The notes under the pieces are model-generated. The model saw nothing but the letters and a program-made list of their open reading frames with translations. It did not search any database and had not been told where the DNA came from. A DNA stretch of 64,000 nt, taken from positions 13,827-77,826 of the forward strand of contig JBOHNX010000001.1 of assembly GCA_050730875.1 (NCBI GenBank), written 5' to 3'. Shown here piece by piece: positions 13,611 to 35,788 of this stretch (positions are counted from its first letter, which is position 1; the number at the start of each line of letters is the position of its first letter). Position numbers and translations under genes: made by a program. This DNA comes from Candidatus Saccharimonadales bacterium. GTDB taxonomy: Bacteria > Patescibacteriota > Saccharimonadia > Saccharimonadales > EFPC-124.

Positions 13611-14020
13611 GGTTGTCAGACTACTAGACGATCGCTTAGCCTTAGGGCTAAGAGGAAAGTCCGGGCAGCATAGGACAAGGCAGTTGTTAACCGCAACCGG
13701 GGGCGACCCTAGGGAAAGTGTCACAGAAACGAAACCGCCTTCACTAGTGAGGGTAAGGATGAAACGAGTGGGCCCAGCTCGTCTGGGATAGGTCTCTTTC
13801 TGCGAGAGCTTAAGAGACTGAAGGTAAGAGCCCACAGCGTGTCATGGTGACATGACACGGAGGTAAACCCTGCCTGCTGCAAGGAGGTCTGTTTTCCACC
13901 CTAAAGGTGGTAGTGGTTCCACTAAATAGACCGCATGAACCGCTTGACTACGACGGGCAACCGTCTAGCTAGATAGATGATCGTCCTGGACAGAACCCGG
14001 CTTACCGGTAGTCTGACATC
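13611..14020 (+). ncRNA. rnpB: RNase P RNA, bacterial type A
   Basis: Conserved GAGGAAAGTCCGGGC and ACAGAACCCGGCTTAC are present. The terminal P1 pairs GTTGTCAGACTAC with GTAGTCTGACATC. Confidence 0.9.
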
Positions 14021-14021
14021 T

Positions 14022-14052
14022 AAAAAACACCGCTATTTTTGCGGTGTTTTTT
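14022..14052. terminator. Bidirectional terminator (rnpB / rplT)
   Basis: AAAAAACACCGC-TATTTT-TGCGGTGTTTTTT. Confidence 0.75.
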
Positions 14053-14067
14053 AGTGCATTTTGGCTT

Positions 14068-16772: not shown

Positions 16773-17149
16773 GGGGCTGAAATAGCTTCGACGATGGACC
16801 TTTACATGTTATCTGGCAAGCCGGTCGCGCATATCGTTACAGTGCGCACCATTTAAGTGTAAAAACTTTTGTACAGCGAGTAGCTGACGCATTCCGCGTT
16901 CCTACTTTCGCACCAGCTGTAGCTTAATTGCGACAGCCGTCATCCATTTAGTGTCAGTCTAAATGGCGTGATGTTATTTACTGACTTGGATTTGTGTGCC
17001 CAGGCGAGCATGCACTTCGACATTTATCGCCAACCTCCCGCAACCTTTTGTGCATTTCGAGTCACGGGAGTTCTACTAAATGTACTAAGCTTGTAGAAGG
17101 ATAGTGTGTAACCCACCGGACCGGGGTGCGATACCCCGCAGCTCCACCA
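16773..17149 (+). ncRNA. ssrA: tmRNA
   Basis: The 5' end GGGGCTG pairs with the 3' end CAGCTCC-ACCA, including G3:U70. T-arm is GGACCGGGGTGCGATACCCCGC. The in-frame tag ends ...ADAFRVPTFAPAVA-TAA; the resume codon is uncertain. Confidence 0.9.
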
Positions 17150-17154
17150 AATTA

Positions 17155-17187
17155 AATACCCCAACTTCACGGTTGGGGTATTTTTTT
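17155..17187 (+). terminator. tmRNA terminator
   Basis: AATACCCCAAC-TTCAC-GGTTGGGGTATT followed by T7. A second hairpin plus T-run follows at about 17213-17260. Confidence 0.8.
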
Positions 17188-29898: not shown

Positions 29899-29927
29899 TT
29901 GACATCAAGGTGTAGACAGGGTAGGAT
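29899..29927 (+). promoter_or_regulatory. rRNA promoter
   Basis: TTGACA, 17-nt spacer, TAGGAT, about 120 nt upstream of the 16S gene. Confidence 0.6.
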
Positions 29928-29973: not shown

Positions 29974-29986
29974 GCACTTTAACAAT
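29974..29986 (+). promoter_or_regulatory. boxA-like antitermination element
   Basis: GCACTTTAACAAT resembles rrn boxA (TGCTCTTTAACAA). A second, weaker copy, TGTAATTTAACAAC, lies at 32236-32249 ahead of the 23S gene. Confidence 0.5.
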
Positions 29987-30045
29987 ATGGTAGTGCAAGT
30001 CAACGTCAGTTTTAACTGAATGTGTCAATTTAGATAACATTCTTT

Positions 30046-31519
<1,474 letters not shown>

Positions 31520-31684
31520 AGGGAGTTCACGCCTATGCATCGAGCAATCATGCATAGTAGCGAGGTCGGTCGTATTGTTGTGTCGAGATCTCTACAACAA
31601 TTTTAGGCCATTTATGGTCACGACGAGATCGTCTTGTAACGCACGACTGCACGTTGACTGCACTACCATGTTGTTAAGTAAAAG

Positions 31685-31712
31685 CGCTTCTCTTAAGAGA
31701 GAGGCGTTTTTT
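31685..31712 (+). terminator. Terminator-like hairpin plus T6 directly after the 16S processing stem
   Basis: CGCTTCTCT-TAAG-AGAGAGGCG (9 bp with one G.U pair) followed by TTTTTT. Confidence 0.55.
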
Positions 31713-31732
31713 ATAAGGCAACTTAAACCATC

Positions 31733-31761
31733 TTGCTGGTGGCGCACTTTTCAGATAGAAT
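31733..31761 (+). promoter_or_regulatory. Internal promoter-like element upstream of tRNA-Ala
   Basis: TTGCTG, 17-nt spacer, TAGAAT. This has the same architecture as the rpsU and rnpB promoters. Confidence 0.5.
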
Positions 31762-31794
31762 ACAGGTTGTCCTGTACCACAAGGTGAAAAACGT

Positions 31795-31871
31795 GGGGCA
31801 TTAGCTCAGTTGGCTAGAGCACCTGCTTTGCAAGCAGGGGGTCGTCGGTTCGAGTCCGACATGCTCCACCA
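31795..31871 (+). tRNA. tRNA-Ala (TGC)
   Basis: Acceptor GGGGCAT/ATGCTCC with G3:U70. Anticodon loop TTTGCAA. CCA is encoded. Confidence 0.93.
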
Positions 31872-31887
31872 CGAGGGGCAAACCGGG

Positions 31888-31910
31888 CTTCGGTCCGGAA
31901 TGCTCCACCA
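31888..31910 (+). repeat. Degenerate duplicate of the tRNA-Ala 3' end
   Basis: CTTCGGTCCGGAATGCTCCACCA compares with the tRNA 3' end GTTCGAGTCCGACATGCTCCACCA. The last 11 nt are identical. It ends 3 nt before tRNA-Ile. Confidence 0.7.
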
Positions 31911-31913
31911 CGT

Positions 31914-31990
31914 GGGCGATTAGCTCAGCTGGTTAGAGCGCGTCACTGATAATGACGAGGTCGGAGGTTCGAGTCCCTCATCGCCCACCA
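31914..31990 (+). tRNA. tRNA-Ile (GAT)
   Basis: Acceptor GGGCGAT/ATCGCCC with discriminator A73. Anticodon loop CTGATAA. CCA is encoded. There is one A.C mismatch in the T-stem. Confidence 0.9.
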
Positions 31991-31994
31991 TGCC

Positions 31995-32023
31995 TTGTAA
32001 AACAACCACTGATCTGTTATTAT
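31995..32023 (+). promoter_or_regulatory. Promoter-like element after tRNA-Ile
   Basis: TTGTAA, 17-nt spacer, TATTAT. It resembles the element at 32140 through shared ACT-ATCTGTTA. Confidence 0.35.
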
Positions 32024-32060
32024 GATCAATGGGTTTGATAGCCACAGTTTTCTTTCGGAG

Positions 32061-32112
32061 AAAACCTCTGGCAACTAGCTGAAAGATTTCAGCTAGTTAC
32101 CAGAGGTTTTTT
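32061..32112 (+). terminator. Strong terminator-like hairpin inside the tRNA-23S spacer
   Basis: A stem of about 21 bp (AACCTCTGGCAACTAGCTGAA with TTCAGCTAGTTACCAGAGGTT, one mismatch) followed by TTTTTT. Confidence 0.5.
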
Positions 32113-32139
32113 GGTGTAAATACCGCAACGAAATAGTCC

Positions 32140-32169
32140 TTTACAAGATGAAGACTCATCTGTTACGAT
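32140..32169 (+). promoter_or_regulatory. Promoter-like element upstream of 23S
   Basis: TTTACA, 18-nt spacer, TACGAT. Confidence 0.35.
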
Positions 32170-32319
32170 GAGAGCGCTTGAGAGCAGACAGGATTGCCTG
32201 GTGAAGGCCTTGCTGCCTGAACTCAAGAATGAGTTTGTAATTTAACAACTAGGTTTTTAATGATGTAAAAGGATGACGGCAAGTTGGTTATTACCAACTA
32301 CTAGTCAAACCAATGCATA

Positions 32320-35366
<3,047 letters not shown>

Positions 35367-35546
35367 TCCTTTTCAGCAAACGTTTATGCTTGCATAAGCT
35401 AAGCTGATAAGGTAGGTTTGACTAGTAGTTGGTGTTTATCAACACCAGCCATCCTTTTACATTTGAAACTATGCGGCCCGCATGGACATCGAAATTTGTA
35501 TATGCTACGTTTACCTTATGGATAACTAATAAATCGCATACAAATT

Positions 35547-35655
<109 letters not shown>

Positions 35656-35664
35656 TTTATATAG

Positions 35665-35695
35665 AGCCCTCGGTTAACGCCGAGGGTTTTATCTT
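35665..35695 (+). terminator. rRNA operon terminator
   Basis: CCCTCGG-TTAACG-CCGAGGG followed by TTTTATCTTTT. Confidence 0.7.
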
Positions 35696-35788
35696 TTGTG
35701 ACACACAGATCTTCTCACTGAAGGTCTTTTTTCTTATTTCTAAGGAGTAGTTTGTATAAAATTTAACATTAAAATGCTCATGTAAATA

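Follow-up and report, generated by a model that had tools for sequence, protein, structure and literature searches.

A compact rRNA locus of a Saccharibacterium is probably transcribed as three units, with a conserved leader RNA predicted ahead of the 23S gene

The classical ribosomal RNA (rRNA) operon, rrn, exemplified by Escherichia coli rrnB, has tandem P1 and P2 promoters and a boxB-boxA-boxC antitermination system, and co-transcription is the usual explanation of why 16S and 23S rRNA are made in equal amounts. Unlinked rRNA genes, judged by distance, were found to be common in Patescibacteria by Brewer et al. (bioRxiv 10.1101/705046; ISME J 2020), and clade-specific unlinking in the candidate phyla radiation (CPR) was described by Lui et al. 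(2021; PMC8172020), whose two Saccharimonadia genomes were counted as operonic. Both studies classify loci by distance (>1500-2000 base pairs (bp)), strand or intervening genes, not by promoters or terminators. Here we analyzed the 16S-23S-5S locus in a 64,000-nucleotide (nt) stretch of a Candidatus Saccharimonadales genome (contig JBOHNX010000001.1, positions 13,827 to 77,826; hereafter the window), in which the 16S-23S spacer is 800 nt and all genes of the locus lie on the + strand. A first-pass annotation had described this spacer as punctuated by terminator-like and promoter-like elements, and every element that it listed was recovered at its position when checked on the sequence. With an 800-nt spacer the locus is not unlinked by the distance definition of Brewer et al. 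(>1500 bp); at the sequence level it does not qualify as a canonical single-transcript rrn operon either, having two terminator-like and three promoter-like internal elements that are conserved.

The explanation that we favor is that the genes of this rRNA "operon" are divided among independent transcription units, in a compact version of an arrangement common in Saccharibacteria; taken as a whole, we consider it fairly likely. The locus would probably comprise three separate transcription units and a conserved leader RNA of ~80 nt before 23S, and not one classical operon. That 16S and 23S are made mainly from separate promoters appears quite likely, and the chances that a discrete ~80-nt RNA accumulates are about even. 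The elements themselves exist, are conserved and have stems that covary; their action as promoters and terminators in vivo, and its efficiency, we infer from the sequence. The features of the locus are as follows (numbers between hexamers are spacer lengths).

29899..29927, +: promoter of 16S, TTGACA-17-TAGGAT (consensus scan, 10/12)
29974..29986, +: boxA-like element of the 16S leader, GCACTTTAACAAT (sequence read)
29989..30009, +: 5' strand of the 16S processing stem, GGTAGTGCAAGTCAACGTCAG, complementary to 31647-31667 and kept in relatives
30045..31517, +: 16S rRNA gene (Rfam SSU_rRNA_bacteria, 1515 bits)
31647..31678, +: 3' strand of the 16S processing stem, complementary to 29977-30009
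31685..31712, +: intrinsic-terminator-like hairpin (9 bp, loop TAAG) and T6 (own scan, fold, relatives)
31733..31761, +: putative promoter of the transfer RNA (tRNA) unit, TTGCTG-17-TAGAAT (sequence read; aligned in relatives)
31795..31871, +: tRNA-Ala (UGC) (ARAGORN, Rfam)
31914..31990, +: tRNA-Ile (GAU) (ARAGORN, Rfam)
31995..32023, +: P1, putative promoter of the 23S leader RNA, TTGTAA-17-TATTAT with TG before the -10 (consensus scan)
32047..32065, +: leader hairpin 1, GUUUUCU-UUCGG-AGAAAAC (fold)
32065..32112, +: leader hairpin 2, CCUCUGGCAA.../...UUACCAGAGG, with T6 (32107-32112), holding the motif AACCUCUGGC (fold)
32140..32169, +: P2, putative proximal 23S promoter, TTTACA-18-TACGAT with TG before the -10 (consensus scan)
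32177..32227, +: boxB-like hairpin of the 23S leader, CTTGAGAGCAGAC...CTGAACTCAAG (fold)
32236..32249, +: boxA-like element of the 23S leader, TGTAATTTAACAAC (sequence read)
32293..32311, +: 5' strand of the 23S processing stem, pairing with 35415-35433 and kept in relatives
32318..35366, +: 23S rRNA gene (Rfam LSU_rRNA_bacteria, 2619 bits)
35546..35657, +: 5S rRNA gene (Rfam 5S_rRNA, 81.5 bits)
35661..35733, +: two terminator-like hairpins with T-runs, end of the 23S-5S unit (scan, fold)

According to the favored scheme, unit 1 would run from the 29899 promoter and yield pre-16S, whose boxA-containing leader would pair with the trailer to form the processing stem, and the polymerase would stop at the 31685-31712 terminator (at ~31710), 6 nt beyond that stem. 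Unit 2 would start at ~31768 from TTGCTG-17-TAGAAT and carry tRNA-Ala and tRNA-Ile; because it has no terminator of its own, it would end at the hairpin and T6 that close at 32112. Unit 3 would be served by two tandem promoters. From P1 (start ~32030) a structured leader would be made that in this lineage ends in a U-tract, most transcripts halting at ~32110 as the ~80-nt RNA, and this element would also shield P2 from upstream transcription. From P2 (start ~32176) the polymerase would transcribe the boxB-like hairpin, boxA, the processing stem, 23S and 5S, and end at 35661-35733.

To compare this arrangement with those of relatives, species-representative genomes were scanned with GGAAGGAGGGGATGATGTCAGGTC of the window 16S, which we take to be the TM7-specific primer site. 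Among the matches listed were 120 blocks of 8 kilobases (L001-L120), of which 106 were from Saccharibacteria and 14 from two other phyla, Chloroflexota and Bacteroidota, which share the site by chance and served as controls. The closest relative among the matches listed, L055, has 93.5% 16S identity, and the nearest 16S relatives of the window among the fetched loci are Saccharimonadales. A metagenome scan with a lineage-specific 16S 24-mer, common only to the window and L055, added L121-L125, giving 125 related loci in total; these five are all family-level relatives, and a near-identical strain was not found in that scan. Ahead of 16S, the promoter, boxA and processing stem are conserved: the promoter type TTGACA-17-(G/T)A(A/G)GAT is kept in L055, L121, L123-L125, L025 and others, and boxA is kept in the form (A/C)(A/T)TTAACAAT. 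The boxA-like GCACTTTAACAAT adds to the 5' strand of the processing stem, pairing with ATGTTGTTAAG at 31668-31678.

The first of the internal elements lies directly after the 16S unit. The hairpin begins 6 nt past the 3' strand of the processing stem and has a 9-bp stem (31685-31693/31698-31706) with 5 G-C pairs, the loop TAAG and T6 at 31707-31712. The stem has a folding energy of -12.1 kcal/mol, the minimum free energy (MFE) with an A/U extension is -17.9 kcal/mol (z = -4.2), and none of 200 shuffles folded as stably. We scanned the relatives for a single hairpin of at most 40 nt, of -7.5 kcal/mol or better, followed by a T-run. Of 91 Saccharibacteria loci, 76 (84%) have one starting 130-260 nt past the 16S 3' end, with a median start of +171 and an interquartile range of 161-178; the background of the detector in the same loci was 0.08 matches per 130 nt, and the controls gave 1/12. 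Throughout these loci the stem sequences differ and the position is kept, and in many relatives the hairpin is preceded by the motif GTTGTTAA. In L055 and L121-L125 the stems carry compensatory changes (CGCTTCTC/GAGAAGCG, CGCACCC/GGGTGCG, GAGACACCC/GGGTGTCTC) and T5-6 is kept. The terminator-like element that the first-pass annotation had placed here, with its 9-bp stem, tetraloop and T6, is thus borne out by the fold, by our own scan and by the relatives, and the comparison makes this putative terminator a phylum-wide feature of Saccharibacteria.

Both internal hairpins, at 31685 and 32065, show the stable G+C stem-loop, the adjoining U-run and the compensatory changes by which intrinsic terminators are recognized. 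By a classical terminator score they reach 18 and 30, compared with -8 to 13 for the terminators of rnpB, the transfer-messenger RNA (tmRNA) and 5S. The first terminator scan missed both, probably because in extending the stem it lets the T-run pair with the upstream A-tract and thereby uses the T-run up; our own scans detect them. Neither hairpin is repeated elsewhere in the window, and since both are unique there, a repeat or mobile-element origin was rejected. The ribonuclease P RNA and tmRNA genes of the window (13616-14054 and 16773-17187) are each followed by a hairpin and T6-7 terminator of the same form as the hairpins of the rRNA locus. In L031 the 16S terminator (AGAGAACCTCTGGCGAAAGCCGGGGGTTCTTT, 173-204 nt past the 16S end) shares the string GAACCTCTGGCGA with the 23S leader motif described below, and several other 16S terminators begin (G/A)AACC(C)TC.

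These hairpins could be read differently, as conditional barriers within one operon: a boxA-modified polymerase starting at 29899 would read through both, and the hairpins would only pause it, protect processed 3' ends or act as RNase sites, the internal promoters being minor or back-up. We consider this unlikely. The T-run that directly follows the stem in 84% of the loci is needed for termination and not for processing or protection, and because it is kept next to a covarying stem the post-16S element is better taken as a putative terminator than as a processing site or 3'-end protector. It also speaks against such barriers that the internal hairpins score at least as high as the terminators of rnpB, tmRNA and 5S. 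The points in favor of read-through concern the boxA elements and the compactness of the locus, and are weighed further below.

The second conserved block lies upstream of 23S. Alignment of 17 distant and 6 close loci revealed a constant order: an A-rich stretch, P1, a leader starting AGTTAAGCGAATG and hairpin 1; then the motif AACCTCTGGC(G/A)A, the rest of hairpin 2, a T-rich run and P2; then the boxB-like hairpin CTTGAGAGCAGAC..., boxA TTTAACAATT, the processing stem and 23S. The hexamers of this module are conserved and the spacers vary at fixed length. P1, TTGTAA-17-TATTAT in the window, is TTGCAA-17-TAtAGT after the A-rich stretch in the 17 distant loci and also in L055 and L121-L125. P2 has the general form GTCCTTTACAAG, a variable 18-nt spacer ending TGn, and TAC(G/C)AT; in 7 family-level sequences GTCCTTTACAAG and CTGnTAC(G/C)AT are invariant while the spacer varies, and P2 was found in 12 of the 17 distant loci. 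In compact loci of another clade (L078, L090, L114) a P2-like CTTTACA-17-TATCAT stands at about -240. The boxB-like hairpin keeps CTTGAG.GCAGA in relatives, and boxA TTTAACAATT is kept in all aligned relatives. Thus the promoters proposed at 31995 and 32140 were both returned by the consensus scan and are both conserved, and the boxA-like elements reported at 29974 and 32236 are present; GCACTTTAACAAT at 29974 and TAATTTAACAAC at 32238 are each downstream of a putative promoter and close to the boxA consensus, GCTCTTTAACAA.

The leader predicted between P1 and T6 consists of two hairpins. Hairpin 1 (GUUUUCU/AGAAAAC, 32047-32065) emerges once the U-tract is omitted from folding. Its arms were read directly, MAFFT giving no in-register alignment of this hairpin; in relatives they lengthen jointly (GTTC/GAAC, GTTTC/GAAAC, GTTTTC/GAAAAC) and gain matching pairs (CG/CG, CT/AG, AA/TT). 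The core of hairpin 2 (32065-32106) has 18 bp with one internal mismatch and a folding energy of -28.5 kcal/mol (z = -6.6; 0/200 shuffles as stable), its middle pairs covary (AU:8/GC:6 and UA:7/CG:6/AU:2), and pairing of the GAAAA tract with the T-run (T6 at 32107-32112) would lengthen it to 24 bp. This T6 is invariant in all 6 family-level relatives (L055, L121-L125). The large hairpin with T6 to 32112 described in the first-pass annotation stands, with a core of 18 bp and up to 24 bp. The only alternative pairing found in the leader is that of the GAAAA tract with hairpin 1 or with the U-tract. Between T6 and the -35 of P2 (32113-32139) we noticed a conserved GCAACGA, joined in L055 and L121-L125 by a palindrome, TGCAA-N3-TTGCA; upstream of P2, this site could fold into a small hairpin or bind a protein.

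The leader is tied to 23S. The exact motif AACCUCUGGC stands 200-320 nt upstream of 23S in 18 of the 34 Saccharibacteria loci with a 23S start, variants being present in others, and wherever the motif was found with a 23S start in the fetched block it was always at this distance. It occurs at no other recurring position, the single cases being the L031 16S terminator, one site in the L056 spacer and a few protein-coding-looking sites; a copy is absent from the region ahead of 16S. In expanded loci, e.g. L018, L031 and L083, the P1 leader module stays attached to 23S. One clade (L014, L056, L074, L109, L116) has neither the T-run nor P2, and there the P1 leader runs on into the boxB/boxA leader. 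The T-run past hairpin 2 is present in 9 of the 12 loci that have P2 and in none of the 5 without P2, which is suggestive of a T-run that stops the polymerase. Given that the motif is always 200-320 nt upstream of 23S and that in one clade the leader is continuous with the 23S leader, the ~80-nt two-hairpin RNA of the first-pass annotation seems better described as a 23S leader module than as a free-standing spacer small RNA (sRNA); its promoter, hairpins and T-run, as proposed there, are conserved.

It is improbable, for the same reasons, that the stretch from P1 to T6 is a gene for a trans-acting sRNA that merely happens to lie beside 23S. Such a gene would account for the conserved promoter of its own, the two conserved hairpins and the T6 that is invariant in this lineage, and also for the conservation of the 5' arm AACCUCUGGC beyond the needs of pairing. 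It would leave unexplained that the motif is fixed in its distance from 23S though the rest of the locus is heavily rearranged, and that in 5 relatives, which lack the T-run, the leader continues into the 23S leader; moreover, a second copy or a target-like complement was not found in the window or the loci, and there is no Rfam family match. The 23S leader module is therefore more likely to act in cis, as an attenuator or insulator, since it is invariably linked to 23S and, in one clade, runs without a break into the 23S precursor. A more specific proposal, that the P1 leader is a new class of cis-regulatory RNA which sets transcription into 23S-5S and so balances 23S against 16S output, is speculative and quite unlikely as things stand; in that case the leader might bind a ribosomal protein or assembly factor by imitating its 23S site. 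In sequence, the leader weakly resembles ACCUCUGGUG, which lies immediately 3' of the sarcin-ricin loop.

Searches for relatives and partners of the leader gave the following. Rfam 15 has no family that reaches its gathering score with the hairpins or the P1 leader, the matches being only meaningless sub-threshold ones to microRNA-precursor hairpins, and an rRNA-associated TM7 motif is not listed by Weinberg et al. (2017). A long-range partner of the motif (GCCAGAGG or GAACATTCGC) was sought in 3' trailers and elsewhere and no conserved one was found, few blocks reaching the 23S/5S trailer. Mimicry of, or complementarity to, the rRNAs of the window was rejected, the matches being only of 8-11 nt (E 0.05-4, not significant). 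We also observed that ACCTCTGGTGTATCGG at 35156-35171 (in 23S, just 3' of the sarcin-ricin loop) resembles the motif of relatives, AACCTCTGGCGATACG; the exact match is 8 nt (E ~3, not significant).

The third element is the putative promoter of the tRNA unit. TTGCTG (31733-38) and TAGAAT (31756-61) are separated by 17 nt and stand 33 nt ahead of tRNA-Ala, and the element, which the first-pass annotation had picked out, is conserved in relatives. Its counterparts in L055 and L121-L125 are TTGCTA/TTGCCA/TTGCGA/TTGCCT-17-TAAAAT/TAGAAT/TATAAT. In the 110 nt ahead of 72 spacer tRNA clusters, which consist of Ala-Ile or Ile-Ala or include an additional tRNA-Val, the best -35/-10 score was at least 9.3 in 58% of cases vs 8.6% of shuffles; the matches (TTGnnn-17-TAnAAT) lie 9-46 nt before the tRNA and their spacing is nearly always 17 nt. 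All four putative promoters of the locus have the sigma-70-type spacing of 16-18 nt between hexamers (16S promoter 10/12, P1 9/12, P2 9/12, tRNA promoter 8/12), and in relatives the hexamers are conserved around a variable spacer of fixed length, as is typical of promoters of this type. The first-pass annotation had likened the architecture of the tRNA promoter to that of the rnpB and rpsU promoters; for rnpB this was not confirmed, the consensus scan giving no + strand promoter immediately in front of that gene. As to the ends of the tRNA unit, tRNA-Ile was lost in L055 and L124, where a terminator directly follows tRNA-Ala, and in L123 a terminator directly follows tRNA-Ile; in the window, L121, L122 and L125 there is no terminator between the tRNAs and the next element.

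In an AT-rich spacer such matches might arise by chance and have no function. Promoter-like matches in the 8-kilobase region are indeed at the level of shuffles (9 found vs 7.9 +/- 2.6), and the terminator scan did not list the two hairpins. Because promoter-like sites are no commoner than in shuffles, the promoters of the window are unproven from this sequence alone and count only through what their conservation in relatives suggests. That conservation is, however, extensive: every element keeps its position in dozens of species whose flanking spacers cannot be aligned, and the fold z-scores are -4.2 and -6.6 with 0/200 shuffles as stable. On these comparative data the chance reading, to which we assign next to no probability, is excluded.

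The loci of relatives further show how far the modules can be separated. Among the 72 Saccharibacteria loci informative on this point, the 16S-23S distance is below 1500 nt in 13 and at least 1500 nt on the same strand in 20, and in the remaining 39 the 23S gene is not within 1500 to >3000 nt downstream of 16S; by the >1500 bp definition, 59 of the 72 are unlinked or likely so. The tRNA cluster is on the strand opposite to 16S in L013, L040, L042, L085, L094 and L110, and the genes found between 16S and 23S include pyrD, a flavin adenine dinucleotide (FAD) oxidoreductase, a glycosyltransferase and an AAA ATPase. In L014, L056, L074, L109 and L116, the spacer tRNAs are separated from 23S by a gene for a dihydroorotate dehydrogenase of 379-398 amino acids (Pfam DHO_dh, E = 1e-55 for the protein of L014). 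The same punctuation as in the window is seen in other compact loci (L025, L073, L076, L078, L090, L114). Since the modules of relatives are separated by ordinary genes or inverted tRNAs, the window contains, as judged from its predicted signals, a compact locus that retains the signals of unlinked units. The three units of the first-pass annotation (16S; tRNA-Ala-Ile; 23S-5S) are thus the arrangement that the comparison appears to favor. Its suggestion of an arrangement intermediate between linked and unlinked also agrees with relatives whose modules are mostly kilobases apart, split by protein genes or inverted tRNAs, and the comparison of spacer architecture across Saccharibacteria for which it called found the terminator, the tRNA promoter and the 23S module conserved.

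Several observations weigh against separate units, and some of them support the single operon with conditional barriers. Both leaders, that of 16S and that of 23S, have a conserved boxA-like element; according to a review, the rrn antitermination complex leaves room for exit-channel hairpins but repositions NusA, which removes NusA support of hairpin pausing and intrinsic termination (PMC8632103). Partial read-through is therefore plausible. Also in keeping with a single operon, the locus is compact, with its 800-nt spacer and all genes on one strand, and Saccharimonadia were scored as operonic by Lui et al. (PMC8172020). The tRNA promoter matches only 8 of 12 consensus positions and is under the threshold of the scan; in addition, units 2 and 3 may overlap, since the tRNA unit lacks its own terminator and P1 begins 5 nt past tRNA-Ile. 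As to the leader, its continuity with the 23S leader in the L014/L056/L074/L109/L116 clade means that it is not inherently a separate RNA, and the co-occurrence of the T-run with P2 rests on about one clade or evolutionary event and is statistically weak. The 120 genome loci are an arbitrary subset, every count on them holding among the matches listed, and the literature yielded no transcript 5' or 3' ends or start-site data for any Saccharibacterium. Against the single operon stands the presence of the same signals where co-transcription is impossible or implausible, as with inverted tRNAs or intervening protein genes. The second boxA, moreover, is downstream of P2, a position that would fit a new transcript taking on its own set of antitermination factors. 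Together with the kept T-run and the hairpin scores, these points lead us to retain the three units as the favored explanation.

Some further features of the locus were noted. The tRNA order Ala-Ile in the window is the reverse of the usual Ile-Ala, and both orders are seen among Saccharibacteria. Between the two tRNAs, at 31874-31911, lies a 38-nt "minihelix" (MFE -21.1 kcal/mol, z = -4.5) that combines an ACCA tail and a UUCG hairpin with a tRNA-Ala-like acceptor stem, GGGGCA/UGCUCC, in which the G3:U70 pair is retained; its absence from L055 and L121-L125 suggests that part of tRNA-Ala was duplicated here recently. The 23S gene, at 3049 nt vs the 2925 positions of the Rfam model, has ~120 nt of extra sequence. 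An insertion of ~110 nt is present in the 16S of L121, L122, L123 and L125, at a BLAST alignment break corresponding to ~31030 of the window, and is absent from the window and L124.

If a 16S terminator and separate promoters are standard in Saccharibacteria, even in compact loci, counts by distance would underestimate the uncoupling of rRNA genes, and these ultra-small symbionts with a single rRNA copy would have to balance their subunits in some other way. The conserved leader before 23S is a concrete candidate for such control, for which the cultivable TM7x system would be suitable. In practical terms, long-amplicon methods spanning 16S, the internal transcribed spacer and 23S would miss most of the phylum, as only 13 of the 72 informative loci have a spacer of <1500 nt. 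Unlinked rRNA genes are already known; the conserved leader RNA before 23S is undescribed in the literature found and in Rfam, and we found no report in the literature of promoters or terminators inside Saccharibacteria rRNA loci, of a post-16S terminator or of the 23S leader motif.

Among known systems, the leader of the E. coli S10 operon, in which termination depends on L4 and NusA (PMC8632103), resembles the 23S leader of the window in being a promoter-proximal structured leader that ends in a hairpin and U-tract upstream of genes for ribosome components. It differs in that no ligand, protein partner or convincing antiterminator was found for the leader of the window, and in that 23S of the window has its own putative promoter, P2, and so would not depend on read-through. 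The likeness to E. coli rrnB lies in a leader boxA followed by a processing stem, a second boxA in the spacer ahead of 23S, two tandem promoters ~145 bp apart, spacer genes for tRNA-Ala and tRNA-Ile, and intrinsic terminators past 5S. Unlike in rrnB, the tandem promoters of the window precede 23S and not 16S and have a hairpin and U-tract between them, a canonical-looking intrinsic terminator lies past 16S, and the tRNAs, in the order Ala-Ile, have a putative promoter of their own. With the unlinked rRNA genes of many reduced or symbiotic lineages, including Patescibacteria/CPR, the window shares the predicted separate 16S and 23S units, and most of the sampled Saccharibacteria loci are unlinked by distance. 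The difference is that the window, with its 800-nt spacer, counts as linked by those criteria and yet is punctuated like its unlinked relatives: linked by distance, it looks transcriptionally unlinked by its signals.

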